Assembly: GCA_051531975.1 (NCBI GenBank)
Contig: JAOPTT010000011.1
Span: 25,419-89,418 of the forward strand
Source: Spirochaetaceae bacterium
Lineage (GTDB): Bacteria; Spirochaetota; Spirochaetia; DSM-2461
Length of the DNA stretch: 64,000 nt
Direction of reading: 5' to 3'
Made by a program: the position numbers and the translations under genes. How positions within the stretch are numbered: the stretch's first letter is position 1; every line of letters starts with the position of its first letter. Shown one piece after another: positions 8,181-25,070 of the stretch. The notes beneath the pieces were generated by a model that worked only from the letters and a program-made list of their open reading frames with translations, ran no database searches and was not told the origin of the DNA.

Positions 8181-9389
8181 TTATTTTTCTCCATCATAAA
8201 GTCGGTATATATTTTTATTAGTAAGATCAGTTAATATTTTTGTTGGATTTTTTATTTTACTTAAAAAAATCATGGCTGCTATTATATAAGGTTTATAACT
8301 GGCTTCCTTATATAGAGGTATACGGAATTTATCAAAAACAGAAGCTTCAACTTCTCCCTGTTCGCAGCTAACACCTGTTATATCCGCAGGTAGACAATGA
8401 AGATAAAGAGCATCTGCATTTTTTGTTGTTTTCATAAGTTCTTCCGTACATTCCCATGCTTTATGTCCAGAGTTTTGTTCTAATAACTTCTTTTCAAGTT
8501 CTTTTATGGCATCAAAATCACCATTCCCATAGAGTTCTGTTCGTTCCTCCATGGCTTCATAAGGCGCCCAACTTTTAGGATAAACTATATCAGCATCTTT
8601 AAAAGCTTCTTCCATTGAATTGGTTTGTGTAAATTTACCACCAGATGAGATAGAATTTTTCTCTGCAATATCTAGAACTTCCGGCATAACTTCATATCCC
8701 TTTGGGTGGGCAAGTGTTACATCCATTCCAAAACGACTTAGTAGTCCTATAATACCCTGAGGTACAGAAAGTGGTTTTCCATAGGATGGTGAATATGCCC
8801 AGGTCATAGCAATCTTTTTTCCTTTAAGATTTTCTACTCCACCAAAATGATGAATAATATGAAGTGCATCAGACATTGATTGGGTAGGGTGGTCAATATC
8901 ACATTGTAAATTAACTAAGGTAGGACGTTGTTCTAGAACTCCATCTCTGTGTCCTTTAGAAACTGCATCTGCTACTTCTTTCATGTAGGTATGGCCTTTT
9001 CCAATGTACATATCATCTCTAATCCCAATAATATCAGCCATGAAACTGATCATATTTGCAGTTTCCCTCACAGTTTCACCGTGAGCAATTTGTGATTTAC
9101 CTTCTTCTAAATCCTGTACTTCTAGACCAAGAAGATTACATGCACTGGCAAAACTAAATCGTGTACGGGTTGAATTATCTCTAAAAAGTGATATTCCAAG
9201 ACCACTATCAAATATTTTAGAGGAAATATTGTTTTTTCTCATCCTACGAAGAATTTCTGCTGTTTTAAATACAGCTGATATTTCATCATCACTTTTATCC
9301 CATGTTAATAGAAAGTCACTTAAATACATCTCTGAAGTATTTAGTTTTGAAAGTTGTTCTATTTGTTTTAATAATATCTCTTTATTCAT
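8181..9389 (-). CDS. ygeW: Knotted carbamoyltransferase YgeW
   Basis: FRDNSTRTRFSFASA, HGETVRETANMISF, LQCDIDHPTQ, YSPSYGKPLSVPQG, HCLPADI. Confidence 0.95.
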   Translation of the reverse strand: MNKEILLKQIEQLSKLNTSEMYLSDFLLTWDKSDDEISAVFKTAEILRRMRKNNISSKIFDSGLGISLFRDNSTRTRFSFASACNLLGLEVQDLEEGKSQIAHGETVRETANMISFMADIIGIRDDMYIGKGHTYMKEVADAVSKGHRDGVLEQRPTLVNLQCDIDHPTQSMSDALHIIHHFGGVENLKGKKIAMTWAYSPSYGKPLSVPQGIIGLLSRFGMDVTLAHPKGYEVMPEVLDIAEKNSISSGGKFTQTNSMEEAFKDADIVYPKSWAPYEAMEERTELYGNGDFDAIKELEKKLLEQNSGHKAWECTEELMKTTKNADALYLHCLPADITGVSCEQGEVEASVFDKFRIPLYKEASYKPYIIAAMIFLSKIKNPTKILTDLTNKNIYRLYDGEK

Positions 9390-9398
9390 TAAAATCTC

Positions 9399-10352
9399 CT
9401 ATAGTGTTATATGTGTTCCTGTACCGTTAAAAAATGCTTCAGCTAAATTATCTGGATCTGTAATTATTACTTCTTTCCCTCCATGTTTAAGGAAATCTAA
9501 GGATGCTTCTATTTTTGGTAACATGCTTCCCTTTGCAAACTGGTTATCCTTTAGGTGTTTTTTTATTTCATCTATGTTTACATTTGATAGAGCTTTTTGT
9601 TCTGGAGTATTAAAATTTATTGCAACATTTTTAACTCCTGTTGAAACTATAAATGTATCTATATTTAAATTGGCAGCAAGAAGAGCAGAAGCTTTATCTT
9701 TATCTATAACAGCATCTATTCCTATTAGATTTCCTTCCTCTTCAATTACAGGTATACCACCACCTCCTGCAGCAATAATTACAAAATTATTACTAATTAA
9801 TGATTTTAATGCTTCAAGCTCAATTATTTTTACTGGCGTAGGGGATGCTACAACACGTCTATAACCCCGGCCTGAATCTTCTATTAAGTTCCAACTTGGA
9901 TTTGTTTTAATTAGATTTTTGTAATCCTGTTCTGAATAGAACTGCCCAATAGGTTTTGCTGGTTTTAAAAATGCTTCATCGTTTTTATCAACTAATACCT
10001 GAGTAATAATTGTTACTGCATTTTTTGTAATTTTTCTTTTTCTAAACTCATTATCTAAAGCCTGTTGTATCTGATAACCAATAGCACCTTGAGTATCTGC
10101 ATTACAGTTAACTAAAGGAACTGTATGCATGTGTTCAACCTGGTTAGCAATTTCAGAACGGTGTAGGATGAATCCTACTTGAGGTCCATTCCCATGGGTT
10201 ATAACTACATTGTGACCATCTTGTATCAGTTCTGCAATCTGATATGCTGTTTCGCATATTGCCTTATATTGATCGTCAACTAATTGATGTTTACTATCTT
10301 TAATTAGCGAGTTCCCACCTATGGCAATTAGGATTTTTTTCTTTTCCTTCAT
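9399..10352 (-). CDS. arcC: Carbamate kinase (ArcC/YqeA)
   Basis: IGGNSL, THGNGPQVG, KPIG, YRRVVASP, GGGGIPV, AVIDKD, GSMLPK. Confidence 0.95.
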   Translation of the reverse strand: MKEKKKILIAIGGNSLIKDSKHQLVDDQYKAICETAYQIAELIQDGHNVVITHGNGPQVGFILHRSEIANQVEHMHTVPLVNCNADTQGAIGYQIQQALDNEFRKRKITKNAVTIITQVLVDKNDEAFLKPAKPIGQFYSEQDYKNLIKTNPSWNLIEDSGRGYRRVVASPTPVKIIELEALKSLISNNFVIIAAGGGGIPVIEEEGNLIGIDAVIDKDKASALLAANLNIDTFIVSTGVKNVAINFNTPEQKALSNVNIDEIKKHLKDNQFAKGSMLPKIEASLDFLKHGGKEVIITDPDNLAEAFFNGTGTHITL

Positions 10353-10810
10353 TATATTTTTCCTCTATGTTTTGTTGATTGGTTTCTTAAATAAAAAATG
10401 GCTTCTAAAACTCCATCATACTTGCCATCAAATATAACCTCTCTTATAGAGGTTGAATCATCATGGTTTGTAGCTATAACTATATACGTATCTTTTTCTA
10501 TCTCTGCCTGGTTTATGGCTTTTACAAGGTCATTATCATAATAACATTTTCTTGCCATGGGGAACCGTTCCTTTGATACAAAATCCTTACGGTTTTCAAC
10601 AATCTGAATATCAAAATCAAATAAAGCCGCTGCTTTTGAGACGGCTAAATTTACATATCCTCCACCAATAGTTCCAATGATATTTCCATTTTGAAGAACT
10701 ATCATTTTAGCAGTACTTCTTGGTGATGAGCCCTTTTTTTCAGTAATAGTTGTTATAGCAAAAGGGACATTTTTTTCCTGAAGTTCAGTAGTTTCTTTAA
10801 ATATATTCAT
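10352..10810 (-). pseudogene. yqeB: Internally deleted yqeB/XdhC-family Mo-hydroxylase accessory gene (open frame, 152 aa)
   Basis: N-terminus MNIFKETTELQEKNVPFA...GTIGGG is joined directly to YVNLAV...IVIATN, then to FDG and the C-terminal GVLEAIFYL. The intervening XdhC and YqeB regions are absent. Confidence 0.7.
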
Positions 10811-13675
10811 CTATATTTTACCTAGAGCTTTTAATATATTCTCAGGAGAGAATGGCCATTTTCTTAGCCAGATTCCAATTGCATCATGTATCGCAATAGC
10901 AATTACGGCAGCAGCACCATTTGTACTGATCTCTGCGACGGATTTTGCACCATAAGGACCAAATGGGTCGACCGTGAATACCAATTCTGCTCTGAAATCA
11001 TCAGGGAGATCGTTTATCATTGGTACTTTATAATCCAATAGATTTGCATTAAGACAGTTACCTTCACTATCTAATATCATCTCTTCCCACAAAGAGTGGC
11101 CAATTGATTTTAATACACCACCATATATCTGTCCCTGGGCTAATTCTGGATTAATCGGGGTTCCACAATCCTGTAGGGCATAATATTTTTGAATATTAAG
11201 ATGTCCTGTCCTTATGTTAACCTCAATCTGACAAAAATGTGCACCGTATGGGAATGCGGCATCATCTGTTGTGTAACCTGCAGTTGCTATTAATTGCCCA
11301 ATTCCTTCTCCGCTTTGGGTTTCAGCTGCTATCTGGGCAAATGTAACACTGGAGTTTTTACCTTGAACCATATCAGGATAAACGACACTAAGCTGTGAAC
11401 TATTTTCCTTAAGCATAACCGCTGCAATTTCAAGTATCTTCTCTTTCATGACACCAGCACATTTTAAAACTGCGTTCCCTGTAAAAAAGGTTCCACTAGA
11501 TGCATATGCTCCGGTATCGAAAGGTGTTGTATCGGTATCTCCAGAAAATATAGAGACTCTGTCCATATCTGTACAAAGACACTCAGCTGCAAGTTTTACA
11601 GCTACAGTATCCAAACCTGTTCCTATATCCGCTCCACCGGTACTGACCATAAAAGTGCCGTCTCCCAGCATTTTAATAATAGCGTTAGAGGAATCAAGCC
11701 CGGGCAGGCCTGAGCCCTGTTGCACAATTACAACACCCTTACCAATGAATGTATCTGGATTTTTACTATCTACTTTCACACCCCAATTTATCATCTCTTT
11801 ACCCTGAGTTATAGCAGGTTCCAATCCGCAGCTAACTACACGTTGCGCTGTGCCTTCCCGTCCTTCGCCTAAACAGCGAAGTATTTCAAGCATATCCCCT
11901 TCATGAACTCTGTTTTTTTCAATTATATCCAACTGACCCATATTTAGTTCGTCAGCAAGTTCGGCCATAGCTGATTGCATTGCAAAAGAACCTTTAGGAG
12001 CTCCATATCCTTGGTATGCACCTGTTGGTGGTATATTGGAATAATATGTTTTAACATCAAATTTAAAGTTATCACATAAAAATAGAGGAAGTGATTTAGC
12101 ACAGGCGTTCATTGGAACAGTCAGACAATGAGAACCATAAGGACCAGTATTGGCTAAAACGCTCATATGTACAGCAGTTAGTTTACCGTCTTTTTTAGCA
12201 CCTAGTTTTACTCCAATTTTCATTGGAAAACGGGTCCTTGAAGCTATAAATTCCTCTTTTCTTGTAAATCTAAAAAAAATGGATCTACCAGTTACATATG
12301 TTAAATAAGCACAAACTTCTTCTAAAACAATATCTTGTTTTGCTCCAAAGCCCCCGCCAACTCTCTCTTTAATTACACGTATTTTATTTTCACTGATACC
12401 AAGAACATAGGCTACTATTCTTCTTAAGTGATATGGTACCTGAGTTGAAGCGTGAATTATTAGGCGTTCCCCATCCATCTTTGAATAAACAACATGAGGC
12501 TCTAAAGGAGTACACTGGATCTGAGTAGTTTCATATTCCCTTTCAAGTATTACATCTGCCTCAGCAAAACCTTTATTTATATCACCAATACCACCATCTA
12601 CACTTGCTGCAATATTTTCTCTTGGTTTTGCACCAATAGGGAATTGATAAATTATTTTACCTTCCCTTGGATCAATATTGGAATTATCAAGATCTGTAGG
12701 GGCACCATTTTCATATTGAATATAGCTGTTGTGCAGAATAGGAGCGTCTTTTTTTCTCGCTTCATCTATAGTAAATACTGGCTTTATTAACTCATACTCT
12801 ACCTTAATTTTACCAATAGCGGTTTTACAAATTTCCATAGACTCAGCTACTACTGCTGCGACTCTATCTCCAACATGAAGTACTTTATCCCCAATCATCT
12901 TCCTATCATAAGGGGATGGTTCGGGAAAACCCTGACCAGCCTGGTTATAATAGATATCAGGACAATTTTTGTGGGTCAAAATATAGACTACTCCAGGTAT
13001 CTTCTCTGCCTCGGTTACATCAATATTTTTTATATAGGCATGTGCGTGGGGACTTCTTAGCATTTTAAGGAAACAGCTTCCAGCTTCTACCATATCTTCA
13101 ACAAAAGCTTTTTCACCTTTTACTAATTTGACGCCATCCACCTTTCCTTTTGCCTTTCCAACAAATTTCAGATCTTCTCTAAACTCAGGTGCAACTTTTT
13201 CCATATAGATTGGATTTGTTCTTCTTTTTGCTGCTATAGCAACTGCTTTAAAAATCTGCTGATAACCTGTGCAGCGACAAAAATTTCCGGAAAGTGCATC
13301 TTTTATATCATTTTCTGTGGGACTCGGAATCCTATCCAGCAAGTCCCTAATAGCCAGTGCCATTGCAGGTGAACAATATCCACATTGTACAATTCCAGCA
13401 TCCACCATTGCTGATTGAATAGCTGAAAACTCCCTGTTTTTAGAAAGATATTCAACTGTCCAGATATTTTTATCCTCAATTTGACTTGGCACTAAGAGAC
13501 ATGAGTTTACAGTTTTTTTATCCATAATAATTGAACAAGCACCACAGGAACCCTGACCATTACACCCATTTCGTACAGAAAATATTCCTTCCCTCTGTAA
13601 AAGAGTTCGTACGCTATCGCCGGGTATGGCATAAAATGATTTAGGAACATCGTTTAATACAAAATTGATTTTCAT
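10811..13675 (-). CDS. xdhD: Xanthine dehydrogenase-family molybdoenzyme, fused 2Fe-2S and Mo-binding subunit (XdhD-like)
   Basis: GCNGQGSCGAC, QCGYC, NFCRCTGY, VGGGFGAK, GAYQGYGAP, PFDTGAYASSGT, DPFGPYGAKS. Confidence 0.88.
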   Translation of the reverse strand: MKINFVLNDVPKSFYAIPGDSVRTLLQREGIFSVRNGCNGQGSCGACSIIMDKKTVNSCLLVPSQIEDKNIWTVEYLSKNREFSAIQSAMVDAGIVQCGYCSPAMALAIRDLLDRIPSPTENDIKDALSGNFCRCTGYQQIFKAVAIAAKRRTNPIYMEKVAPEFREDLKFVGKAKGKVDGVKLVKGEKAFVEDMVEAGSCFLKMLRSPHAHAYIKNIDVTEAEKIPGVVYILTHKNCPDIYYNQAGQGFPEPSPYDRKMIGDKVLHVGDRVAAVVAESMEICKTAIGKIKVEYELIKPVFTIDEARKKDAPILHNSYIQYENGAPTDLDNSNIDPREGKIIYQFPIGAKPRENIAASVDGGIGDINKGFAEADVILEREYETTQIQCTPLEPHVVYSKMDGERLIIHASTQVPYHLRRIVAYVLGISENKIRVIKERVGGGFGAKQDIVLEEVCAYLTYVTGRSIFFRFTRKEEFIASRTRFPMKIGVKLGAKKDGKLTAVHMSVLANTGPYGSHCLTVPMNACAKSLPLFLCDNFKFDVKTYYSNIPPTGAYQGYGAPKGSFAMQSAMAELADELNMGQLDIIEKNRVHEGDMLEILRCLGEGREGTAQRVVSCGLEPAITQGKEMINWGVKVDSKNPDTFIGKGVVIVQQGSGLPGLDSSNAIIKMLGDGTFMVSTGGADIGTGLDTVAVKLAAECLCTDMDRVSIFSGDTDTTPFDTGAYASSGTFFTGNAVLKCAGVMKEKILEIAAVMLKENSSQLSVVYPDMVQGKNSSVTFAQIAAETQSGEGIGQLIATAGYTTDDAAFPYGAHFCQIEVNIRTGHLNIQKYYALQDCGTPINPELAQGQIYGGVLKSIGHSLWEEMILDSEGNCLNANLLDYKVPMINDLPDDFRAELVFTVDPFGPYGAKSVAEISTNGAAAVIAIAIHDAIGIWLRKWPFSPENILKALGKI

Positions 13676-14484
13676 TTTCCCTCCAGGTTATAAGCTGAAT
13701 AAAAACAATCACAAACCATAACACCTGTCAGATGAGTTTTAAATTTGGCACTTCCTCGTATGTCATCTATTGGATTTATCTGCTTTTGTATTAGTGCTTC
13801 CAGGTCTTCTTTAGATGGTAAATTATCACCATTTAATATATCTTCTAATCCCCTAAGACGTACAACATGTTTGTCTACTCCACCTACAGCCACTATGATG
13901 CCACTTAGTTTTTCTGACTTTTTGGTAAAACTAACTGCGACATTTAAAATTGCAATATCATTAGCGGTCCGGGTAAAATGATCTAGAGCTGTTAATCTCT
14001 GTTTCTGATTTGGGATTACAATAAACAATATTAATTCATCTTCTGTACTATTTATAAAATCAATAATATCTATTAATTTTTCTCCATTTGGTAAAGAGAC
14101 TTTTAATTTTGCCTTTAATGATATTAAAATAGGGATAAGATTAGAACATGATCTGTTTACACCAATATTACCACCGATAGTGGCCATATTCCTAATATTT
14201 CTATTAGTCATATATTTTGATGCGGTTTTAACAGATATTGGTACTATCTCAGAATCAATTAGTTGTTGTAAAGTTACAGCACTTCCAATTATAAGTTCTT
14301 GCTGTTTCATTTCAATTTTGTTCAGACCAAGCAGCTCTAAACTAATCGCTTGCTTCTTCTGAATATTGTGGTCCGTCGAATTTATTTCAGTACCACCTGC
14401 AAAAAAAAGAGCTGTGTCTTTAAACTTATCTTTTAGCTTTACTGCTTCAGATATTGTTGTCGCTTTAAAAAACTGTTCTATCAT
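13672..14484 (-). CDS. ygfM: Molybdoenzyme FAD-binding subunit (YgfM-like)
   Basis: MIEQFF, FAGGTE, IRNMATIGGN, DDIRGSA; 4-bp overlap with xdhD. Confidence 0.85.
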   Translation of the reverse strand: MIEQFFKATTISEAVKLKDKFKDTALFFAGGTEINSTDHNIQKKQAISLELLGLNKIEMKQQELIIGSAVTLQQLIDSEIVPISVKTASKYMTNRNIRNMATIGGNIGVNRSCSNLIPILISLKAKLKVSLPNGEKLIDIIDFINSTEDELILFIVIPNQKQRLTALDHFTRTANDIAILNVAVSFTKKSEKLSGIIVAVGGVDKHVVRLRGLEDILNGDNLPSKEDLEALIQKQINPIDDIRGSAKFKTHLTGVMVCDCFYSAYNLEGK

Positions 14485-14587: not shown

Positions 14588-15955
14588 TTATAAATCTTTC
14601 ATCATTTTAGTTGCAATTTTATTAGCATTTGTAATAATTTCATCCTCATCAATACCACATAATTTACCATCCTCTACAACAATTTTTCCATTAACTATTG
14701 TATATTTAGTTTGGTGATTATTACCGGCAAATATAAGTGCAGCAAGTGGATCAGATAGTGTTCCTACATATTCTAATTTATTCAAATCAAAAATTGCCAA
14801 ATCCGCAGCCATTCCTTCTTCGATCTTTCCTATGGAATCAAAACCAAGCAGTTTCGCACCATTTTTTGTTGCTAAACCTATAGCTTCCCGGGCAGTTAGA
14901 CCATCAGCTCCATACTTAACTCTTTGCAGAAGTAGAGCAGTTCGTATTTCCCCTAAAAAGTCCGATGTATCGTTTGATGCAGAACCATCAACACCAAGGC
15001 CGACATTTATTCCAAGTTTTAACATCTCATTTACCCGGGCAATTCCAGAACCTAGACGCATATTTGAAGAAGGGCAGTGGGCAATGGATGTTTTTGTCTT
15101 TGCGAGCAGATTTAGTTCGTCATCATTAAAAAATATCCCGTGGGCATACGATACATCTTCACCGATGAAACCACATTCTTCCATTATTGCAAGTGGTCTT
15201 TTTCCTAAAGAATTAATACAATAATCATTTTCATCACTAGTTTCTGCTAAGTGGGTATGTAGTCTAACTCCATAATTACGAGCCAATTTAACAGATTGTG
15301 TCATAAGATCTTTAGTAATAGAAAAAGGACTACAAGGTGCAAGTAATATTCGTTTCATGGAGAAGTCACTACTATCATGATACTTCTCGATTACTCTTTG
15401 GCTGTCTTTAAGTATTTCATCATCTGTTTGCACAACAGAGTCTGGAGGCAATCCTCCATCCTTTTTGCTAAGGGACATTGACCCCCGTGTTGGAGAAAAT
15501 CGAATTCCTAATTTATCCGCAGCTTCAAACTGAATACCCATTAGATCACCTTTAAAACCTGCAGGATACAGATAATGATGGTCTGTTGTACATGTGCAGC
15601 CAGTTTTTAGAAGTTCTCCCATTGCTACTAAAGATGAATAATAAACAGCATCTTCATCTAGATGTTTCCAGACCTCATACAGATATATTAGCCAATCAAA
15701 AAGCTTAGCATTTTGTACTGCTGGAATGTTACGGGTCAAAGTTTGAAAAAAGTGATGATGTGTATTAACAAAACCTGGAACTACTACACATGTAGAGCAA
15801 TCTATAATTTTAACATCACTACTATTAAATTTACTAACACCAATTTCTTTAGCTATCTTTTTTATTTTGTTGCCTTCTATTAATATATCACTTCCTTTAT
15901 TTCCATCTGTATCATTTGAAGTTGATATATATAGACAGTTTTTTAGTAATATCAT
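14588..15955 (-). CDS. 8-oxoguanine deaminase-like amidohydrolase (AtzB/TRZ family)
   Basis: NTHHHFFQTLTR, TDHHY, LAPCSPFS, HTHLAET, HCPSSNMRLGSG, GVDGSASND. Confidence 0.85.
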   Translation of the reverse strand: MILLKNCLYISTSNDTDGNKGSDILIEGNKIKKIAKEIGVSKFNSSDVKIIDCSTCVVVPGFVNTHHHFFQTLTRNIPAVQNAKLFDWLIYLYEVWKHLDEDAVYYSSLVAMGELLKTGCTCTTDHHYLYPAGFKGDLMGIQFEAADKLGIRFSPTRGSMSLSKKDGGLPPDSVVQTDDEILKDSQRVIEKYHDSSDFSMKRILLAPCSPFSITKDLMTQSVKLARNYGVRLHTHLAETSDENDYCINSLGKRPLAIMEECGFIGEDVSYAHGIFFNDDELNLLAKTKTSIAHCPSSNMRLGSGIARVNEMLKLGINVGLGVDGSASNDTSDFLGEIRTALLLQRVKYGADGLTAREAIGLATKNGAKLLGFDSIGKIEEGMAADLAIFDLNKLEYVGTLSDPLAALIFAGNNHQTKYTIVNGKIVVEDGKLCGIDEDEIITNANKIATKMMKDL

Positions 15956-17412
15956 AATGCTGCTACACGTTTATTAAAATCTATGATAAGTTCATCAATT
16001 TTAGGTGTCAGTTTATAAATATCTGTCCAATAATTTCTGTCATACCATTGTGCGTTTATTTCATCATATGTTTTACCTTGCTGTTCAACCCAGGTATAAT
16101 ACTTTAGATTGTGGATACGCTTTTTATCTAAATAGGAGAGTTCAAGTAAATTATCAGTAGTTAACTGTGTTATTAGATCATAATCCCTAATGGCATCTTC
16201 TCTGGTATACTTACCTCTTTCCTCAGTTAGTTCATCTAAACGAGACTGATACATTTCACAGGAGTCTGTAAAGACTGTCATAACAACATCATCTTCTGTT
16301 AATTCATAATATTTAGCAAATTTTATAGCTGATATAAGGTTCCCGATACCTGAGACACCCATGAGTCCAAGGTTGTCTAACAGATTTTTATCAATACCCT
16401 GTTCTGCAAGATATTCCCTTCCTACACCATCGTTAAATAGTCTCAACAATCTGATAGCATGCTCATCATCTACTGCTATTACCATATCTGTATTTCGTAC
16501 ATTATGAATCCATGGGACATGTTTATCACCGATACCTTCAATCCGATGCCCACCAAAACCGTTGTTAAGTAGGGTAGGACATTGCAGAGCTTCACTTACC
16601 GCTAATTTTGCAAAAGGGAATACTGTTTTTAAATATTCACCACTGGCTAAAGTTCCTCCAGAACCTGAAGCTAGACAAGTCCCTGCAAATCTACCTTTTG
16701 GACCCATAATTTTTTTAATAACTTTTTCCATGGCATTTCCGGTAACTTCATGATGCCATAGATGATTTCCAAACTGTTCAAACTGATTATAGAAAAAAAG
16801 TGAATCTCCTCTGGTTTCTTTTAATTCCTTACATTTGTCAAATATTTCTTTTACATTACTTTCACAACCTGGTGTTGCAATAGTTTCACCTGCAATATCA
16901 GCAAGCCAATTAAACCTTTCTTTTGACATTTCTTCCGGTAGAATTGCAATTGAATCACAGCCTAATAATCTTGAAATATATGCACCACCACGACAATAAT
17001 TTCCCGTGGAAGGCCAGACTGCCTTATGTTTATCCGGATTAAATTGTCCTGTTACTAAGGTAGGGGCAATACATCCATAACTAGCACCAACTTTATGTGC
17101 TCCAGTTGGAAACCATTTACCAACCAAGGCCACAATACGTGCCTTAACACCGGTTAATTCCGATGGTAGTTCCATGTAGTTTACATCGCCATACTGACCA
17201 CCTTCTTTTTTAGGTTCATTATGCCAGTTTACTCTAAATAGATTTTTGGAATGAATATCCCAGAGACCTATACCTTTTAGTTCATCTTGTATATTTTGGG
17301 GTATGGTTTCAGGATTCTTCATCTGTTCGAATGTGGGAAGTATTATTCCCTGTTCTTTACACTGCCTTGCCGTTTTTTCAATCTGCTCTTCGTTCATAGT
17401 TAAATCAATCAT
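15952..17412 (-). CDS. Uncharacterised fold-type II (beta family) PLP-dependent enzyme
   Basis: FPTGAHKVGA (PLP lysine), WPSTGNY, GSGGT, HRIEGIGDKH; not recognisable as canonical DpaL. Confidence 0.8.
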   Translation of the reverse strand: MIDLTMNEEQIEKTARQCKEQGIILPTFEQMKNPETIPQNIQDELKGIGLWDIHSKNLFRVNWHNEPKKEGGQYGDVNYMELPSELTGVKARIVALVGKWFPTGAHKVGASYGCIAPTLVTGQFNPDKHKAVWPSTGNYCRGGAYISRLLGCDSIAILPEEMSKERFNWLADIAGETIATPGCESNVKEIFDKCKELKETRGDSLFFYNQFEQFGNHLWHHEVTGNAMEKVIKKIMGPKGRFAGTCLASGSGGTLASGEYLKTVFPFAKLAVSEALQCPTLLNNGFGGHRIEGIGDKHVPWIHNVRNTDMVIAVDDEHAIRLLRLFNDGVGREYLAEQGIDKNLLDNLGLMGVSGIGNLISAIKFAKYYELTEDDVVMTVFTDSCEMYQSRLDELTEERGKYTREDAIRDYDLITQLTTDNLLELSYLDKKRIHNLKYYTWVEQQGKTYDEINAQWYDRNYWTDIYKLTPKIDELIIDFNKRVAAL

Positions 17413-18569
17413 TTTTCCTCCAAAATATTTTGTTGTAATCCCTTTGTGGCTGCTGATATATCTTTTAATCCGTTTCCAGTTATTAACAATACAATTGTCC
17501 CAGTAACGGGAAGACTATTTCTTTCCTTTAAAAACCCTGCATATGAAGATGCTGCAGCAGGTTCTGCAAAGAGGCCTCCAAGTGATGCCATCTCTTTTTG
17601 TGCATTAAGTATCTGTTCATCTGATACTGTTATAACTTTACCGTTGTATTTTTTAAGCATTTTTAATGCATAATATCCACCTCGGGGAATATCAACGGAA
17701 ATTGAGTCTGCAATAGTTGATGAGCTTATAGGGTTATCAAAGTTTCCTGTTTTAAGGGCAGTATAGATGGCACTACTACCTTCTGCCTGAACACCATAAA
17801 CAGTAGGAACTTTTTCTATGAACCCAAGTTGTTTTAAATCTGCAAAACCCTTATAGATTCCACTTATAATTACTCCATCTCCAACAGGGACAAAAAGATA
17901 ATCTGGAGCTTTTTGTAGCTGCTTAAATATTTCCAGTGCTACTGTCTTTTTTCCCTCTATTGTCATTGGATTGAAGGCAGTATTACGATTTAATCCACCT
18001 TCTTTTTTGGAATACTCTAATGAAAGGTCAAAAGCCATGTCATAATTCCCATCGACTTTTACAACTTCAGCACCATATTGTAACGCCTGAATTATCTTGG
18101 CCTGGGGAGCGGATTTAGGTAGAAAAAGTTTTATTTTTAGCCCGGCAGCAGCTCCTACACCAGACATAGAGGAGCCTGCATTACCTGTAGAAGCTAAAAC
18201 AATTTTGCTTATTTTATGTTTAATAGCAAATGCTGCAACTAAATATGAAGCTCTATCTTTTAAGGAGCCCGTAGGATTTAGTGAATCATCTTTGATAAAA
18301 AGCCCATTAAATCCTGTCTTCTTACGTATTCGCTCCGGCTCCCATAAAGGAGTATTCCCCACTGGTATTGCTGGAAAATACTTCTTCTCAACAGGAAGTA
18401 GTTCATGAATATCTAAGCCACCTTCTATAATACCTGTTAACTTAACTTCTAAAATTCCCCGTAATGGTTCAGTATTTTTTTGAAGTAATGAACACTTTTT
18501 ACAAAGCATTATATCGGGAGTTATTTCATATTCTTTTCCACATTCACTGCAAATATAGCTAAACTTCAT
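17409..18569 (-). CDS. Threonine synthase-like PLP enzyme
   Basis: N-terminal CxxC..CxxC, GNTPL, NPTGSLKDRA, ASTGNAG, EGKKT, VPVGDG, AEPAAA, ITGNGLKD. Confidence 0.85.
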   Translation of the reverse strand: MKFSYICSECGKEYEITPDIMLCKKCSLLQKNTEPLRGILEVKLTGIIEGGLDIHELLPVEKKYFPAIPVGNTPLWEPERIRKKTGFNGLFIKDDSLNPTGSLKDRASYLVAAFAIKHKISKIVLASTGNAGSSMSGVGAAAGLKIKLFLPKSAPQAKIIQALQYGAEVVKVDGNYDMAFDLSLEYSKKEGGLNRNTAFNPMTIEGKKTVALEIFKQLQKAPDYLFVPVGDGVIISGIYKGFADLKQLGFIEKVPTVYGVQAEGSSAIYTALKTGNFDNPISSSTIADSISVDIPRGGYYALKMLKKYNGKVITVSDEQILNAQKEMASLGGLFAEPAAASSYAGFLKERNSLPVTGTIVLLITGNGLKDISAATKGLQQNILEEK

Positions 18570-18571
18570 GT

Positions 18572-19789
18572 TTACTTTTCATCCAATATATAAGGCAACA
18601 TTGCATAAAATGCTGCACAAATCTTTAAATCTTCTACTCGATTTATTTCATTTGGAGCATGAGCTTGATCCTCATCTCCTGGGCCAAATCCTACAGCTGG
18701 AATTTTATGTCTTCCTGTTGTTGCAACTAAGTTTGTAGAAAAGGTCCATTTATCAACAATGGGTTTTTTACCAAAAAGTTTTTCATAGGCTACTACTCCG
18801 GCCAAAACAAGAGGGTGGTCCTGATTAACTTTCCAGGTTGGGAAATATAACTCCTGACCATATTCTTTACCTCTATAACCTTTTTTATTAAAATCTGGCA
18901 TATAAACTTCGATCTTATCCTCATCTTCCCCGGTTGCTTCTGCCATATATTTTTTAACCTGTGAGATTGCAAGTTTATCGTCCTCTCCCCAGGTTAATCG
19001 TCTATCCATATAAATCGTGGCCTGATCAGGTACTGCGCACTGAGAAGGTCCCTTAACGTCTATTTTAGAAACAACTATTGTACCCTTTCCTAAAAAGTTA
19101 TCATCATCAGGTTTAAGATCTTCGTTTAACTTTTCTATTGCTAATACAGCTTTAGCAGCTTTATAGCCAGCATTTACACCACGTTCTGGAGCTGACCCAT
19201 GGGAAGAGACACCCTTTAATTTTGCCTCTATTTCCATTCTACCTCGATGACCTCTATACAGATTACAACTTGTAGGTTCTGTGGAAACAACTAGATCTGG
19301 TTTAAGATTTTCCTCTTCTATTAAATATTTCCAGCACATACCATCACAATCTTCTTCTAGAACAGTAAAGGTAAAATAGATAGTATAATTACCTGTATAA
19401 TCCAATTCTTTAAGGATACGACCGGCAGTAATCATTGAGGCTGCTCCACCCTTTTGATCCGAAGCTCCACGTCCATGAACAATTCCGTCTTTAATTAGGC
19501 CTGAAAATGGGTCTAGGTCCCACTGGTTTATATCACCTTTCTCAACAGTATCAATATGGGCATCAAATGCGATTGATTTAGGACCGCTGCCTATTTTAGC
19601 TATAACACTTCCTAATCCATCAATTCTAACTTCATCAAAACCTGCCTCATTACAAAGCTCTACAATTTTTTTACAAACAGCCTCTTCCTGGCCACTGTAA
19701 GAACGAATTTTGATTAAGGATGAAAGATTTTCTGCAGTATAATCACTATACTCCACCGCTTTTTTTAAAATTTCTTCATTGATTACCAT
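18572..19789 (-). CDS. ygeY: YgeY family M20 metallohydrolase
   Basis: DAHIDTV, GRGASDQKGG, EEDCDG, GHRGRME, FLGKGT, DKWTFSTN, GFGPG..AHAPNE. Confidence 0.92.
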   Translation of the reverse strand: MVINEEILKKAVEYSDYTAENLSSLIKIRSYSGQEEAVCKKIVELCNEAGFDEVRIDGLGSVIAKIGSGPKSIAFDAHIDTVEKGDINQWDLDPFSGLIKDGIVHGRGASDQKGGAASMITAGRILKELDYTGNYTIYFTFTVLEEDCDGMCWKYLIEEENLKPDLVVSTEPTSCNLYRGHRGRMEIEAKLKGVSSHGSAPERGVNAGYKAAKAVLAIEKLNEDLKPDDDNFLGKGTIVVSKIDVKGPSQCAVPDQATIYMDRRLTWGEDDKLAISQVKKYMAEATGEDEDKIEVYMPDFNKKGYRGKEYGQELYFPTWKVNQDHPLVLAGVVAYEKLFGKKPIVDKWTFSTNLVATTGRHKIPAVGFGPGDEDQAHAPNEINRVEDLKICAAFYAMLPYILDEK

Positions 19790-19804: not shown

Positions 19805-21133
19805 TTAATTTTTTAAATTATCCATTTTTTCCCAGAGACGCTCTGTTGCTTTTGTTGCTTTTTCATATATTTCTTTGACATCAAAGGGGAATTGTCTGTC
19901 TTCATAAACAATTTTTCCATTTATTATGACAGTTTTCACATCATGAGAAGACATTCCAAAGGCCATATGCCCTGGAATATTCTCAGCAAGTAGTGGTGTC
20001 GGGGAATTGTAATCAGAAATAACAAGGTCTGCTTTATATCCAGCTTCGATTTTCCCAAACTTCGCTTCAAAGTTTCTTTCAAGCAGTCTATTTCCGTTAT
20101 TTAGAAATTTCAGATAGCTATCTGGCCACATTGGACCTCGGTTATCTTTATGTTTAAAATATGCAAATTTAAACTCTTCAAACATATTGCTTCCAATTCC
20201 ATCTGTACCTAGTGCTAAGTTATTAATTTTATCTAATTTGTTATTGTAACCTACTGCATTATTCATATTGGAGCGGGGAGTATGTACTAAAAAACAATCT
20301 TTATCGTTTAATATCTTAATATCCTCTTCTTCAAGATGTACTCCATGAACAACAATACTTTTACTATTTAAGAGACCAAAGTCATCTAATCTACTAAGGA
20401 CATTTTTACTATATTTATCATGGGAATAAAAGTTATCATAAAGATCCTCTGCAACATGAATATGAATACCTCTACCTGTTTTTTCCATTGCTTCTGCAAG
20501 TAGGGACAGCCCTTCATCAGGAATAGTAAAAGGTGCGTGTCCACCTATAAGTGCTTCTACTAAATATGGTTTTCTTGGATCTTTTTTATCGGCATCTATA
20601 GCTTTTGCAAAGTTTATATTCTCTTCTATTCCATCTTTCATCTGCTCTAGGCCGTTTCTATCAGTTACTTCATAACAGGTTAAACCTCTAAGCCCAGTTT
20701 TTAGAAAGCCCTCTTTTAATGTATTCAGAGAACCTTGTATATAGGAGGGTGAGGAGTGGTGATCAATAACTGCAGTAGTTCCTGATTTTATTGCATCTAA
20801 TGAACAAATAAGTCCACTATATAGGAGGATTTCTTCGTCTATAGCTCTATCTAAACGCCACCATAAGTTTTGTAAAATAGAGATGAAATCTGTACTAGGT
20901 TTTATTTTTGCCATAATACCTCTGGCCAAACCTGAATAAAAATGATTATGAGAGCATACCAATCCGGGATAGATAATCTCACCTGCAAGATCTATAACTC
21001 TTTCAGCTTTATATCTGTTTTCCAAATTGATACCTACTTCTTTTATTAAAGTTTCTTCAATAGCTATATCCATACCTTTTCTTACTAAAGGTGGTTCAAA
21101 TTGTACTATTGTTGCATTTTTTAATAAAATCAT
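19805..21133 (-). CDS. ssnA: Aminohydrolase SsnA
   Basis: CSHNHFYSGLARG, WWRLDRA, DHHSSP, GHAPFT, HIHVAED, RSNMNNAVG, LGTDGIG. Confidence 0.93.
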   Translation of the reverse strand: MILLKNATIVQFEPPLVRKGMDIAIEETLIKEVGINLENRYKAERVIDLAGEIIYPGLVCSHNHFYSGLARGIMAKIKPSTDFISILQNLWWRLDRAIDEEILLYSGLICSLDAIKSGTTAVIDHHSSPSYIQGSLNTLKEGFLKTGLRGLTCYEVTDRNGLEQMKDGIEENINFAKAIDADKKDPRKPYLVEALIGGHAPFTIPDEGLSLLAEAMEKTGRGIHIHVAEDLYDNFYSHDKYSKNVLSRLDDFGLLNSKSIVVHGVHLEEEDIKILNDKDCFLVHTPRSNMNNAVGYNNKLDKINNLALGTDGIGSNMFEEFKFAYFKHKDNRGPMWPDSYLKFLNNGNRLLERNFEAKFGKIEAGYKADLVISDYNSPTPLLAENIPGHMAFGMSSHDVKTVIINGKIVYEDRQFPFDVKEIYEKATKATERLWEKMDNLKN

Positions 21134-21151: not shown

Positions 21152-24100
21152 CTATGCTATAACCGGACCTAATAGATAATTATGTTTTGTAATTATTATA
21201 TCTATTACACTAATGGCATTTATTACAGACTTATCTTTACTATCAATATTTTTAATTCTGTTATCCTCTGTTAGTTCTAAGTTATATATCTTTCCAGCTA
21301 AACGAAGCTTGATTTGACGGTTATCAATTAGGAAACCGCTGTTTTCACTATTTTGAAAGTCCTCTTTTAGATTAAAAATTGTTAGTTTATCTTTGTATGG
21401 TAAACCATCATATGGGCAAAACGTTCCACAATTCCCACACTCATTACAGTAGGCATCGATGTGAACTATTTGGAAAGGATCATTAAAATTATTGGTGAAA
21501 TTTTCACCGTTGCAAGGGATGGCTATATTTGCTCTATTTGGACATACATCTACACATTTATTACAAATATAATTACATTCTAGGCATCTTGATGCTTCAT
21601 TTTTAGCAAAGGCTGTAATCTCGTCTAGGTCTAAACTGTTATTAAGTTTACCCTTTCTGCCTAGTATTGCTGTAGTATCAGTTTCAAACTTAACTGTTAC
21701 ATCAGCATGGGAATATCCATGTTCTCTATCAATTATCGTATCAGCAGTTAATCTTGCATCTGCAATACATTCAACAATGGTGGAGGGCCCAGTACGGGAA
21801 TCACCAATTAAAAACACATTGTTTATTGTTGTTTCATTTGTTTTGTTATCAATATCGGTTTTGCCCTTATTCCCAAGTGGCAGTCCTAGACTTTCTATAA
21901 CTTCTGTATCTACATGCTCTCCAATTGCAGTTATTACCGTATCAATTTTAAAGGTTTGTGTAGATACTGTTGCTATAGGGCGACGTCTACCACTAGAATC
22001 TGGTTCCCCTAATTTCATAACTGAACAAGTTAGATCTTCCTTAAATTTTATAGGATTTCTTAAGAAGTGAAACTCTACTCCATCTTCTAAAGCTTCTTCA
22101 TATTCTTCTCTATCTGCAGGCATCTCTTTTTGTGTTCTTCTATAAATCACTATAACCGATTGGGTATCTTTTAACTTTAATGCTGCCCTAGCACTATCCA
22201 TGGCAGTATTTCCTCCACCAATAACAGCAACATTTTTACCAATTTTTAGTGAATCTGGATTTTTATTAAATTGGCCTAGGAATTCTAACGATTCTAATAT
22301 GTTATTATTGTCATTTTCTATATTTAAGTAATTTCCTTTTTCGGCACCTATTCCAATACAGATATACTTAAATCCATCAGTTTTTAGAGATTTAATACTA
22401 AGACTACTATCTACTCCGTATTCAAATTTAACTCCATGTGCTTTAATAAAATTTATATCTCTTTCTACGGCATCTTTTGGTATACGAAAATTCGGTATAA
22501 TATTATTAACAACTCCACCTGCTGATTGCTCTTTTTCAAATACAGTTACTAAAAATCCATTTCTTGCTAGGAAAAAGGCAGCAGAAAGTCCTGCGGGTCC
22601 AGCACCAATAACTGCAACTTTTATATTTTTATCTAATTTAGGTTTGATCCAACCATCTTTAAACTCACTAAATCCGTTTTCAACTGCAATTTTTTTCATC
22701 TCACGAATTTGAACAGCACCTTCGTAATCTAATCTTGTACAGTTATACATACACTGATGATCACAAATATATCCAGTAATTGAGGGAAGGGCATTTTTTG
22801 TATAGATTAATTCAATTGCCTCTTTATACTTTTTTTCTCCAACTAATTTAATATATTCAGGAATATCCTGATGAATAGGACATGCATAAATACAAGGGGC
22901 GATATAACAATCAAATAGGGGAAGTGGTTTATTAACACTTATTTTATCATCACCTCGCCACTGCTTTTTTAAGTGACTTTCAGTAAGACAATCTTTTGCT
23001 AATTGTTTAAGTAGAGGTACATTGATAGACGTTCTATTCCAATCTGATGAATCAGTGGATGTCTCTAATTCCATAGCTGATTCTTTCATTCTTACATAGC
23101 CACCAGGCTTTAGTAGATCAGTTGCCATAGTTATTGGATGTATTCCGGTTTTAAAAATTTGTTTAATATTTATAGAAGAAGCACCACCTGAATAGGAGAT
23201 AGGAATATTACCATTAAATTCTTCTGCCAGCAAACTTGCAAGATTTATAGAAAGTGGATATAAAGCTCGACCGGACATGTACATTTCAGAACCTGGAAGC
23301 ATCTGTTTGTTATTAATAATTCCTAATGTATTAGTAAGTTTAACTCCAAATTTTATGTTGTTTTCCACCGCCAGTTTCATTAGACGTCTTAACATTTTAA
23401 TAGCATCATTAAACTGCAGATCATTATCAAATGATTCTTCTTTCATTTCGATATAGTTAAAACCAAGATTATCTAATATGTCTCTTACCATATTAAACCC
23501 AAGCAGTGTAGGGTTAAGTTTTACAAAGGTATTCAGTCCCTTTTGTGTTATCATATATTCACAAATTGCTTCGATCTCTTTTGGAGGACAACCATGCATA
23601 GTTGACAGAGTAAGTGATTTACATATCTGTGTCGGTATCTTCTTTGATAGACCTTTTAGTGACTCAATTTTTGACTCAATTCCAGTACCATTAAGGAAAC
23701 TTGATTCTTCGATTATCCGGTCTAAAGCTGTTAAATAGTTTTTAAAAACCACGTTAGAGGATGAATCAATCATATCCATAATGAAACGATCCATCTTAGG
23801 ACTCTTAATTCCCTTTAAATCGTATCCGACACTCATATTAAATATAAACGAACGTTCTTTACCAACTTTAAAACCGAATAAAAGTTCTATAAGGTGAAGA
23901 AGAATCCAAGCTTTTATATATTCATCATATGCTTTTTCTAAAGTGAATTCAGATGACCACTCTGTATTAAATGCTTCATCATCAGCATCTATACATGGCT
24001 TTTCAATTTCCAGGGTATCTATAATCTGAACGGTCTTTAACTCTATAAACCGTCCTCCTGTTAAATAGGAGCTAATGATATTTTGTGCTAACTGTGTATG

Positions 24101-24283
24101 AGGACCTGCTGCTGGTCCAACCGGTGTATCACAATGTTCGCCAAATACTTCACTTCTGTTTTTATTAGTTTTATGAAAGAAATTGATTTGAGAGATTTCA
24201 AATATGGAATTTGAAACTTTATATTCACTAAAGATTCTTTTTAATAGTTCCTCGAACGGAACCTGTCTCATTATATCTCCCAT
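21152..24283 (-). CDS. ygfK: YgfK flavin/Fe-S oxidoreductase (annotated putative selenate reductase subunit)
   Basis: MGDIMR start after GGAGG RBS (ATG 24283 preferred over the track start); GPAAGPHTQLAQNI, STMHGCPP, GAGPAG, GGGNTAMD, C-terminal CLECNYICNKCVDVCPNRAN and CNECGNC. Confidence 0.93.
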   Translation of the reverse strand: MGDIMRQVPFEELLKRIFSEYKVSNSIFEISQINFFHKTNKNRSEVFGEHCDTPVGPAAGPHTQLAQNIISSYLTGGRFIELKTVQIIDTLEIEKPCIDADDEAFNTEWSSEFTLEKAYDEYIKAWILLHLIELLFGFKVGKERSFIFNMSVGYDLKGIKSPKMDRFIMDMIDSSSNVVFKNYLTALDRIIEESSFLNGTGIESKIESLKGLSKKIPTQICKSLTLSTMHGCPPKEIEAICEYMITQKGLNTFVKLNPTLLGFNMVRDILDNLGFNYIEMKEESFDNDLQFNDAIKMLRRLMKLAVENNIKFGVKLTNTLGIINNKQMLPGSEMYMSGRALYPLSINLASLLAEEFNGNIPISYSGGASSINIKQIFKTGIHPITMATDLLKPGGYVRMKESAMELETSTDSSDWNRTSINVPLLKQLAKDCLTESHLKKQWRGDDKISVNKPLPLFDCYIAPCIYACPIHQDIPEYIKLVGEKKYKEAIELIYTKNALPSITGYICDHQCMYNCTRLDYEGAVQIREMKKIAVENGFSEFKDGWIKPKLDKNIKVAVIGAGPAGLSAAFFLARNGFLVTVFEKEQSAGGVVNNIIPNFRIPKDAVERDINFIKAHGVKFEYGVDSSLSIKSLKTDGFKYICIGIGAEKGNYLNIENDNNNILESLEFLGQFNKNPDSLKIGKNVAVIGGGNTAMDSARAALKLKDTQSVIVIYRRTQKEMPADREEYEEALEDGVEFHFLRNPIKFKEDLTCSVMKLGEPDSSGRRRPIATVSTQTFKIDTVITAIGEHVDTEVIESLGLPLGNKGKTDIDNKTNETTINNVFLIGDSRTGPSTIVECIADARLTADTIIDREHGYSHADVTVKFETDTTAILGRKGKLNNSLDLDEITAFAKNEASRCLECNYICNKCVDVCPNRANIAIPCNGENFTNNFNDPFQIVHIDAYCNECGNCGTFCPYDGLPYKDKLTIFNLKEDFQNSENSGFLIDNRQIKLRLAGKIYNLELTEDNRIKNIDSKDKSVINAISVIDIIITKHNYLLGPVIA

Positions 24284-24401
24284 AAAAACCTCCACCCAAA
24301 CTATTTTTGATACATGGAAACAATTATTCTTTTTGGAGTTATTCTGAAAAAAAGAATAAAAAAATCAGAAGACGTTGCCTTCTAAACTTAATATTAATTT
24401 A

Positions 24402-24497: not shown

Positions 24498-25070
24498 TTA
24501 TTGATTTATAAGTAAGTTTTTATAGTTTTCATCAGTATCTACATCCATGTATATTCCATCTGTATTCACAGGAACAAGACGTGTAGGGTAGATAGATAAT
24601 AATTTCTTCATGGAGCTATCGACCTTCTCTGCCAATATTGTTTCAATTATTGTTTGTGGAAGTAGAACAGGATGTCCTCTTTTATCATTAAAAACAGGGA
24701 AAACAGCTTTGTTACCTTTAAACTTTGATAGTTTTTGGTAAATACTAGGAGGAATTAGAGGTAGATCACCATGGGTAATAAAAAAATATTCAGATTTTAC
24801 AATACTTACACCTGTTTGAACCGATGTAAACATGCCTTTTTTGAACTCTTTATTTTCTATTATGATTATATTTTCCCATTGACCTAATAATTCTATTAAC
24901 TCAAAGCTTCTATATCCAACTACAACAATAACTCTTTCACAAACTGCTAAGGCATTATCTATTGTGGTTTCTATTAAACTTTTACCAGCAAATGGAAGTA
25001 ACATCTTCCATGTACTCATCCTAGAGGACATTCCTGCTGCAAGGATAATGCAATCAATATCAATCTTCAT
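24498..25070 (-). CDS. mocA: Molybdenum cofactor cytidylyltransferase (MocA/YgfJ)
   Basis: ILAAGMSSRM..WKMLL, GMFTSV, HGDLP, RGHPVL, DVDT; adjacent to the Mo hydroxylase cluster. Confidence 0.85.
   Translation of the reverse strand: MKIDIDCIILAAGMSSRMSTWKMLLPFAGKSLIETTIDNALAVCERVIVVVGYRSFELIELLGQWENIIIIENKEFKKGMFTSVQTGVSIVKSEYFFITHGDLPLIPPSIYQKLSKFKGNKAVFPVFNDKRGHPVLLPQTIIETILAEKVDSSMKKLLSIYPTRLVPVNTDGIYMDVDTDENYKNLLINQ

Follow-up and report, generated by a model that had tools for sequence, protein, structure and literature searches.

A translationally coupled pair of pyridoxal-phosphate enzymes as a candidate terminal module of a reductive urate operon without YgeX

Results

The 64,000-nucleotide (nt) stretch of contig JAOPTT010000011.1 from a Spirochaetaceae bacterium analysed here, hereafter the window, whose own numbering is used throughout, carries one long minus-strand operon with two adjacent genes for pyridoxal 5'-phosphate (PLP) enzymes directly after ygeY. 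PLP1 is a protein of 386 amino acids (aa) that resembles threonine synthase (ThrC), and PLP2 is a protein of 486 aa with the fold of cysteine synthase (CysK) and cystathionine beta-synthase (CBS). The pair stands where urate operons of Escherichia coli and Clostridium have the diaminopropionate ammonia-lyase YgeX (DpaL), and it is the candidate terminal module considered below. Numbers beginning with L and G denote fetched loci and genomes.

17409..18569, minus strand: PLP1, ThrC-derived fold-type II PLP enzyme, 386 aa (PF00291, 258.2 bits; TIGR00260, 175.4 bits, cut-off 167.1)
15952..17412, minus strand: PLP2, CysK/CBS-fold PLP enzyme, 486 aa (PF00291, 43 bits; TIGR01139 cysK, 98 bits, cut-off 350.95)

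Both open reading frames lie where a preliminary description of this DNA had placed them. The ATG of PLP1 starts 2 nt past the stop codon of ygeY, PLP1 and PLP2 overlap by ATGA as had been claimed, and a further ATGA overlap joins PLP2 to the downstream deaminase gene; a GGAGG sequence lies 5 nt upstream of the PLP2 start. PLP1 and PLP2 are translationally coupled members of the operon. The FPTGAHKVGA motif ascribed to the second protein was located at PLP2 residues 101-110.

In the reductive urate pathway, as given by Liu et al. (10.1101/2025.04.24.650524) and Li et al. (10.1101/2025.05.19.654654, PMC12507026), urate is reduced to 2,8-dioxopurine by XdhD and then reduced further by YgfK, after which SsnA and HyuA open both rings to give 2,3-diureidopropionate. 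The ureido groups are removed by YgeW, which together with carbamate kinase yields adenosine triphosphate (ATP), and by YgeY, and in the last step YgeX converts diaminopropionate to pyruvate and ammonia. In the version of Liu et al. the C3 unit ends as acetate plus ATP.

A profile search of the window's own genome (98.48% complete, 29 contigs) with the YgeX/DpaL model TIGR03528 returned four weak matches, the best at 60.6 bits against a cut-off of 532.25. In the same search PLP1 reached 28.3 bits and PLP2 gave no match, and TIGR03528 is not among the NCBIfam matches of either protein, in line with the earlier statement that neither looks like DpaL. A ygeX serving as the terminal enzyme of the urate cluster was thus found neither in the window nor elsewhere in the genome, where the preliminary description had allowed that one might lie. 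It had also raised the possibility that PLP1 is the sole housekeeping threonine synthase. In a genome search with TIGR00260, however, PLP1 reaches 175.7 bits and is outscored by two other genes, at 282.8 and 252 bits; both encode long-form enzymes, of 434 and 464 aa. Outside the operon there is also an ordinary CysK-like gene, C20, which shares 28% identity with PLP2.

The operon runs from a mocA-like gene through ygfK, ssnA, ygeY, PLP1 and PLP2 to genes for a deaminase, molybdenum hydroxylase subunits and the carbamoyl-handling enzymes, and closes with an adenosine deaminase gene. Its other members, in this order, are as follows.

24498..25070, minus strand: mocA/ygfJ-like molybdenum cofactor cytidylyltransferase (TIGR03310, 183.6 bits, just under the cut-off of 186.45; PF12804)
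21152..24295, minus strand: ygfK, iron-sulphur (Fe-S) flavoenzyme reducing 2,8-dioxopurine (TIGR03315, 1481.2 bits, cut-off 835.3)
19805..21133, minus strand: ssnA, amidohydrolase opening the pyrimidine ring (NF005540, 625.1 bits, cut-off 444)
18572..19789, minus strand: ygeY, M20 hydrolase, 3-ureido cleavage in the published pathway (role from Li et al.; NF009555, 493.5 bits, cut-off 321)
14588..15955, minus strand: 8-oxoguanine-deaminase-like amidohydrolase (NF006055, 596.4 bits, cut-off 532)
13672..14484, minus strand: ygfM-like flavin adenine dinucleotide (FAD) subunit of a molybdenum (Mo) hydroxylase (TIGR03312, 189.9 bits, cut-off 241.5; PF00941 and PF03450)
10811..13675, minus strand: xdhD, Mo/Fe-S subunit, urate to 2,8-dioxopurine (TIGR03313, 1274.3 bits, cut-off 1101.9)
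10352..10810, minus strand: short XdhC-like maturation factor, 152 aa (PF02625, 45.6 bits; NF045664, 78.9 bits, cut-off 350)
9399..10352, minus strand: yqeA-type carbamate kinase (NF009007, 429.7 bits, cut-off 266)
8181..9389, minus strand: ygeW, knotted carbamoyltransferase (TIGR03316, 761.8 bits, cut-off 500)
6617..7933, minus strand: hydantoinase-like amidohydrolase, probable hyuA counterpart (TIGR02033, 249.2 bits, below the cut-off of 393.25; PF01979)
5623..6624, minus strand: adenosine deaminase, purine feed-in (NF006850, 541.4 bits, cut-off 419)

The products of xdhD, ygfK, ssnA, ygeW, the carbamate kinase gene and ygeY exceed curated NCBIfam cut-offs, and the hydantoinase-like gene, the seventh of the set, falls below its own. 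Judged by this gene content, the operon is a reductive urate / 2,8-dioxopurine cluster in which every pathway enzyme is predicted except YgeX.

PLP1 belongs to the fold-type II PLP enzymes, exceeding the PF00291 gathering threshold of 35 bits with an aligned PLP lysine, as does PLP2. Residues 55-380 align with the solved threonine synthases 2zsj, 2d1f, 6cgq and 1uim (E 4e-53 to 2e-42), with K104 at the position of the PLP lysine, and the lysine motif, the EGxKT motif and the TGNGLKD motif are all retained. The threonine synthase model TIGR00260 is passed only narrowly. Three motifs set PLP1 apart from the four solved enzymes: STGNT is replaced by STGNA (within ASTGNA); NSxNPxR has become NTAFNPMT (NTAxNPxT in the family), with loss of the Arg; and GNAGN has become GDGVI, the family form being GDG(V/C/N)x with an invariant Asp. 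The changed residues are presumably those that hold the substrate phosphate in ThrC. PLP1 further differs from ThrC in an added N-terminal four-Cys zinc ribbon, and in being tied to PLP2 and SsnA, not to threonine genes.

These features hold throughout the family. ASTGNA, the Arg-less NPxR motif and GDG occur in 72 of 72 PLP1-family sequences (62 from fetched loci, nine database homologues and the window protein), at identities to PLP1 down to 39%, and C7, C10, C23, C26, K104 and D231 are invariant. By its active-site signature, PLP1 is not a threonine synthase.

PLP2 is an uncharacterised enzyme of the CysK/CBS fold. Alignment to solved cysteine synthases puts Lys107, within FPTGAHKVGA, at the position of their PLP lysine, and PLP2 stays far below the cut-off of the cysteine synthase A model TIGR01139. 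The core of an AlphaFold2 model of PLP2 (pLDDT, the predicted local distance difference test score, 85.6) superposes on CysK/CBS structures with a Foldseek probability of 1.00, TMt of 0.74-0.80 and TMq of 0.50-0.56. The S-T-G-N loop, the G-S-G-G-T loop and the GVSGIG stretch are retained along with Lys107, and we take their roles to be those familiar from cysteine synthase. Sequence identity to CysK/CBS proteins is only 19-28%, and PLP2 differs from them in extra helical parts of about 85 aa at the N-terminus and about 100 aa at the C-terminus; the low TMq indicates that these ~185 terminal residues have no solved counterpart.

Conservation within the family is high, with 156 of the 486 positions at least 97% conserved over 215 sequences from many phyla. 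Cys114, Cys140, Cys152 and Cys278 are invariant or nearly so in this set, Cys140 lying directly past the substrate-binding Asn loop, as does an invariant Tyr-Cys-Arg; neither the four cysteines nor this triplet belongs to the CysK/CBS pattern. The cysteines could form a metal, redox or catalytic site. The predicted complex of PLP2 with PLP1, both supplied as alignments, scored 0.00 against a mark of 0.32, a value with no bearing on binding either way. A search of a protein atlas returned only the family's own clusters, under generic names. OrtB (2-amino-4-oxopentanoate thiolase), a fold-type II protein of ~470 aa, was dropped as a candidate identity for PLP2, there being no ornithine-fermentation neighbours in the annotated loci and no more than generic names for the family in the sources; neighbourhoods and names, and no OrtB sequence, were the basis of this comparison.

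The distribution of the pair was examined in 201 genomes of the window's own class, counting SsnA above its curated cut-off unless stated and DpaL-like proteins at 300 bits or more. Full-length PLP2 (55-76% identical) is present in 101 genomes and a PLP1-like protein in 100; the two occur together in 96 and singly in nine, all of the latter drafts of 160 to 710 contigs. PLP1 and PLP2 are an obligate pair. PLP2 is present in 73 of the 74 genomes with SsnA. In 56 of these it shares a contig with ssnA at a distance of no more than 15 kb, in one the distance is 27 kb, and in 16 the two are on separate contigs. PLP2 also occurs in all 18 further genomes whose SsnA-like protein falls below the cut-off.

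DpaL exceeds its curated cut-off in two of the 201 genomes and reaches 300 bits in 24. Among the 74 SsnA genomes a DpaL-like protein is found in 20, in none of them within 15 kb of ssnA: two carry it on the ssnA contig, 56-67 kb away, and the other 18 on different contigs. Fourteen PLP2 loci and six DpaL loci were fetched from this class. Thirteen of the PLP2 loci are clusters with ygfK, ssnA, ygeY, xdhD or ygeW, the remaining one (L110) having no pathway gene, and none of the six DpaL loci has ygfK-type cluster genes; the DpaL neighbours in L112, L114, L115 and L116 are unrelated. One genome, G168, has two clusters, a ygfK/ygeW-type cluster with the pair (L106) and a cluster of the UacX/UacY type known from Clostridioides difficile (L113), which comprises DpaL, an M20 hydrolase, an Amidohydro_3 protein, a DHO_dh/Fe-S protein and a Mo hydroxylase. 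Each cluster type thus comes with a terminal PLP enzyme, or enzymes, peculiar to it.

A second class, that of the Anaerotignum sp. genome holding L065, was sampled with 200 genomes scored and one left out. SsnA exceeds its cut-off in 10 of them and an SsnA-like protein (E<=1e-90) occurs in six more, while PLP2 is found in four and DpaL (E<=1e-80) in 24. Of the 16 genomes with SsnA or an SsnA-like protein, 10 have DpaL only, four have PLP2 only, none has both and two have neither. DpaL lies within 12 kb of ssnA in nine of the 10 DpaL-only genomes. The two arrangements are exemplified by L122, with the canonical order ygeY-ygeW-yqeA-dpaL-ssnA, and L120, with ygeW-PLP1-PLP2-ygeY-ygfK-ssnA. Since related genomes are not independent, we give these as counts without a probability.

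The preliminary description had expected the pair and ygeX to exclude each other among such clusters. This expectation stood in the second class but, genome-wide, not strictly in the own class, where the 20 SsnA genomes described above hold both; what did stand there is the location, with the pair inside the urate cluster and DpaL, where present, somewhere else.

A scan with PLP2 across one genome per species gave at least 600 matching stretches, of which at least 599 were confirmed, placing PLP2 in at least 599 species genomes. The best 80 loci were analysed; they come from Chloroflexota, Spirochaetota, Halanaerobiales, Synergistaceae, SAR324, Acidobacteriota, Desulfuromonadales and others. 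Full-length homologues of both proteins at 60-87% identity occur in many phyla, so PLP1 and PLP2 are real genes and not chance reading frames. A PLP1-like gene accompanies PLP2 in 50 of the best 80 loci and a DpaL-like gene in none. In the 49 of these with at least 5 kb on both sides, a PLP1-like gene is present in 35 and at least one pathway-type gene in 37. DpaL (E<=1e-30) was found in none of five genomes searched from these other phyla. Five genomes in which PLP2 stands alone were also inspected; three of them carry a PLP1-like gene and ssnA at other sites, which are close to each other in two cases. A second PALP gene that might substitute for PLP1 was sought in the 30 loci without PLP1, and none was found.

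Several loci differ in composition from the window operon. L043 and similar Chloroflexota loci carry what resembles the lower half of the pathway, namely an OTC-like carbamoyltransferase, carbamate kinase, a nucleoside-type ABC (ATP-binding cassette) importer, a PLP1-like protein, a 310-aa GT2-like protein, PLP2, a 215-aa protein of unknown type and an amidohydrolase, with no ssnA, ygfK or xdhD within 10 kb. In many relatives from the window's class (L100-L104 and L109), PLP1 and PLP2 are separated by a distant second Mo-hydroxylase gene, which shares 21-26% identity with xdhD and in some cases is accompanied by an FAD subunit; the window operon has no such gene, its PLP1 and PLP2 being directly coupled. 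The stand-alone DpaL of L117 (genome G110) adjoins a RidA-family gene and a sigma-54 activator, and this locus looks like a separate diaminopropionate-utilisation unit.

Two further genes of the window operon deserve a remark. The 8-oxoguanine-deaminase-like gene is a constant downstream neighbour of PLP2 in relatives (adjoining it in L100-L103, L109 and L111) and may feed oxidised guanine into the urate pathway. The 152-aa XdhC-like protein matches just the first ~60 of the 346 positions of the XdhC_rel_AOR profile, and it may be a short form or a remnant.

Sampled words of the window were recovered at a fraction of 0.99 in a DNA sequencing run, possibly the window's own source, and at 0.41 in an RNA-library run of the same sample. 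Among contigs from the RNA run, 26 pieces matched the window with an identity of >=99%; they cover portions of ygeW, xdhD, the deaminase gene, PLP2, ygeY, ssnA and ygfK. With one sample and possible DNA carry-over, these pieces are a hint of transcription and no proof, and the uncovered portions carry no information.

Discussion

The co-occurrence of PLP1 and PLP2, their coupling and their position in the cluster make it very probable that the pair is part of the urate pathway, and we take it to be the terminal module. The narrower reading, one of those that the preliminary description had offered, is that the pair does the job of YgeX on diaminopropionate or albizziin; the missing ygeX, the non-housekeeping nature of PLP1, the placement in the cluster and the exclusion in the second class all support it, and we put its probability at roughly 0.55.

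By orthology, XdhD/YgfM, YgfK, SsnA, the hydantoinase, YgeW with carbamate kinase, and YgeY would deliver 2,3-diaminopropionate via 3-ureidoalanine (albizziin). The pair would then turn 2,3-diaminopropionate, or its ureido precursor, into pyruvate and ammonia. In the division of labour that we prefer, PLP1, altered at three ThrC motifs and carrying an invariant Asp, would be the eliminating lyase, while PLP2 would carry out beta-elimination or beta-replacement on a beta-N-substituted alanine, or prepare the right stereoisomer. Alternatively, one enzyme might perform a beta-substitution and the other the elimination. According to Li et al. (10.1101/2025.05.19.654654), the upstream enzymes are D-selective and YgeX is equally active on either isomer, D or L; with two enzymes, stereo-handling could therefore be divided from elimination.

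Several observations weigh against replacement of YgeX by the pair. Of the 24 own-class genomes with a DpaL-like protein, 23 also carry PLP2, so those cells could end the pathway with DpaL and use the pair for something else. One cluster, L118 of genome G014, combines a DpaL-like gene (36% identical, 360.5 bits, under the cut-off) with PLP2, in the order ygeW-like, ygfK-like, DpaL-like, xdh-like, ssnA-like, PLP2, hydantoinase-like; PLP1 was not found in this genome (84% complete, 710 contigs) and ygeY was not detected in the 20-kb L118 stretch. Their joint presence there argues against a plain redundancy of PLP2 with a lyase of the DpaL type. Ten of the 101 own-class PLP2 genomes have no SsnA at E<=1e-60, 10 of the 49 well-flanked loci from the best 80 show no pathway gene nearby, and of the five genomes in which PLP2 stands by itself, two lack both PLP1 and SsnA. 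The published eight-enzyme reconstitution needs just one PLP enzyme and leaves the need for two unexplained. Taken with L118 and the genome-wide coexistence, this suggests that PLP1 and PLP2 are not equivalent. Replacement of YgeX is a genomic inference.

The most serious alternative, which we hold to be rather unlikely, is that PLP1 alone replaces YgeX and that PLP2 adds an extra step absent from the E. coli and Clostridium pathway. PLP2 might remove the 3-ureido group of albizziin by beta-elimination, exchange the beta-substituent for water to give serine, or invert the alpha-carbon of a D-intermediate. Beta-replacement on beta-substituted alanines is a familiar reaction of the CysK/CBS fold and fits such a role, as does the much higher conservation of PLP2 (mean column identity 76%, against 64% for PLP1 in comparable sets). 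PLP2 also lies apart from the cluster in G406 and G407 while PLP1 stays beside ssnA, and in L118 it accompanies a DpaL-like gene with PLP1 not found. L118 is, however, a single case from an incomplete (84%) draft, and the operon already has ygeY for removal of the 3-ureido group. PLP2 and a cluster-borne DpaL occur together in none of the 16 second-class genomes, which fits replacement better than addition.

It is improbable that the pair opens an assimilatory branch, in which aminoacrylate or diaminopropionate would become cysteine, selenocysteine, serine or another beta-substituted alanine instead of pyruvate. The nearest solved relatives, cysteine synthase/CBS and threonine synthase, are biosynthetic, and database names link the cluster to selenium metabolism. 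A fermenter without DpaL would nevertheless lose the C3 unit for acetate and ATP (Liu et al.), the genome has C20 and two threonine synthases elsewhere, and the presence of PLP2 in 73 of 74 SsnA genomes fits a core pathway step. We give a similarly small chance to a general amino-acid lyase module, acting on serine, threonine or cysteine and loosely attached to purine clusters. PLP2 does stand among housekeeping genes in L056, L062, L029 and L055, and the own-class PLP2 genomes without SsnA noted above would suit such a module; yet three of the five genomes with a stand-alone PLP2 have PLP1 and SsnA elsewhere, neighbouring in two, and all four second-class PLP2 genomes have SsnA or an SsnA-like protein, which only 16 of the 200 genomes have overall. 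Least credible of all is that the database names are right and that a spare threonine synthase and a spare cysteine synthase sit in the operon by chance. Homologues are labelled so, and PLP1 does pass TIGR00260 (175.4 against 167.1 bits). PLP2, though, reaches just 98 of the 350.95 bits that the cysK model requires, all 72 PLP1 members depart from motifs that do not vary among the four solved threonine synthases, and the genome has two better threonine synthases. Nor would chance account for the co-occurrence (96 genomes with both against nine with one) or for the link to SsnA in two classes and several phyla.

The proposed replacement of YgeX by the pair is best seen against the closest known systems. 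Like YgeX/DpaL in the urate clusters of E. coli and Clostridium, the pair occupies the operon place after ygeY/ygeW, belongs to the same cofactor class (fold-type II PLP, PF00291) and would serve presumably the same task, conversion of the last C3 fragment to pyruvate and ammonia; among the SsnA-bearing second-class genomes the two alternate. It differs in lying outside the TIGR03528 family, in consisting of two proteins rather than one, and in its ancestry, one member coming from the ThrC branch and the other from the CysK/CBS branch. The UacX/UacY-type cluster of C. difficile offers a parallel in that single pathway steps are filled by non-orthologous enzymes, but the published variants concern the reductase and 2-ureido cleavage, and Li et al. 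mapped the terminal PLP step by PF00291 only. We found no description of the pair, either in urate-pathway papers or in Haft and Self 2008; the supplementary gene-neighbourhood tables of the 2025 preprints could already list its members. What is new relative to the published pathway is the PLP pair at the terminal step; the pathway itself is known.

A bolder form of the proposal, which we regard as doubtful though worth stating, is that the pair leads out of the urate pathway by a new route of two PLP enzymes, whose reaction specificities would have no precedent in either fold. In PLP1, an Asp binding an ammonium or ureido group would in that case have taken the place of the phosphate pocket, and the enzyme would act as a diaminopropionate or serine lyase. 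PLP2, with its four cysteines and two extra domains, would accept alanines that are D-configured or ureido-substituted; its reaction might be the release of urea or carbamate from albizziin, or the conversion of diaminopropionate to serine, and a metal or redox site might be built from its cysteines.

The anaerobic urate pathway was solved only in 2025 and is under consideration for urate-lowering probiotics. The present distribution indicates that large groups of anaerobes do not commonly end the pathway with YgeX. The names "threonine synthase" and "cysteine synthase" are probably wrong for two large protein families that now bear them. Where ygeX is required to recognise urate degraders, as in the survey of Kasahara et al., organisms with the pair would be missed. 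Li et al. (10.1101/2025.05.19.654654) map YgeX in SsnA neighbourhoods by PF00291; since PLP1 and PLP2 also match PF00291, this marker cannot separate them from YgeX, and surveys that use it would lump the pair with that enzyme. The pair presents a well-defined target for enzymology. Should the new two-enzyme route prove true, anaerobic purine breakdown in many phyla would end via intermediates absent from the E. coli scheme.

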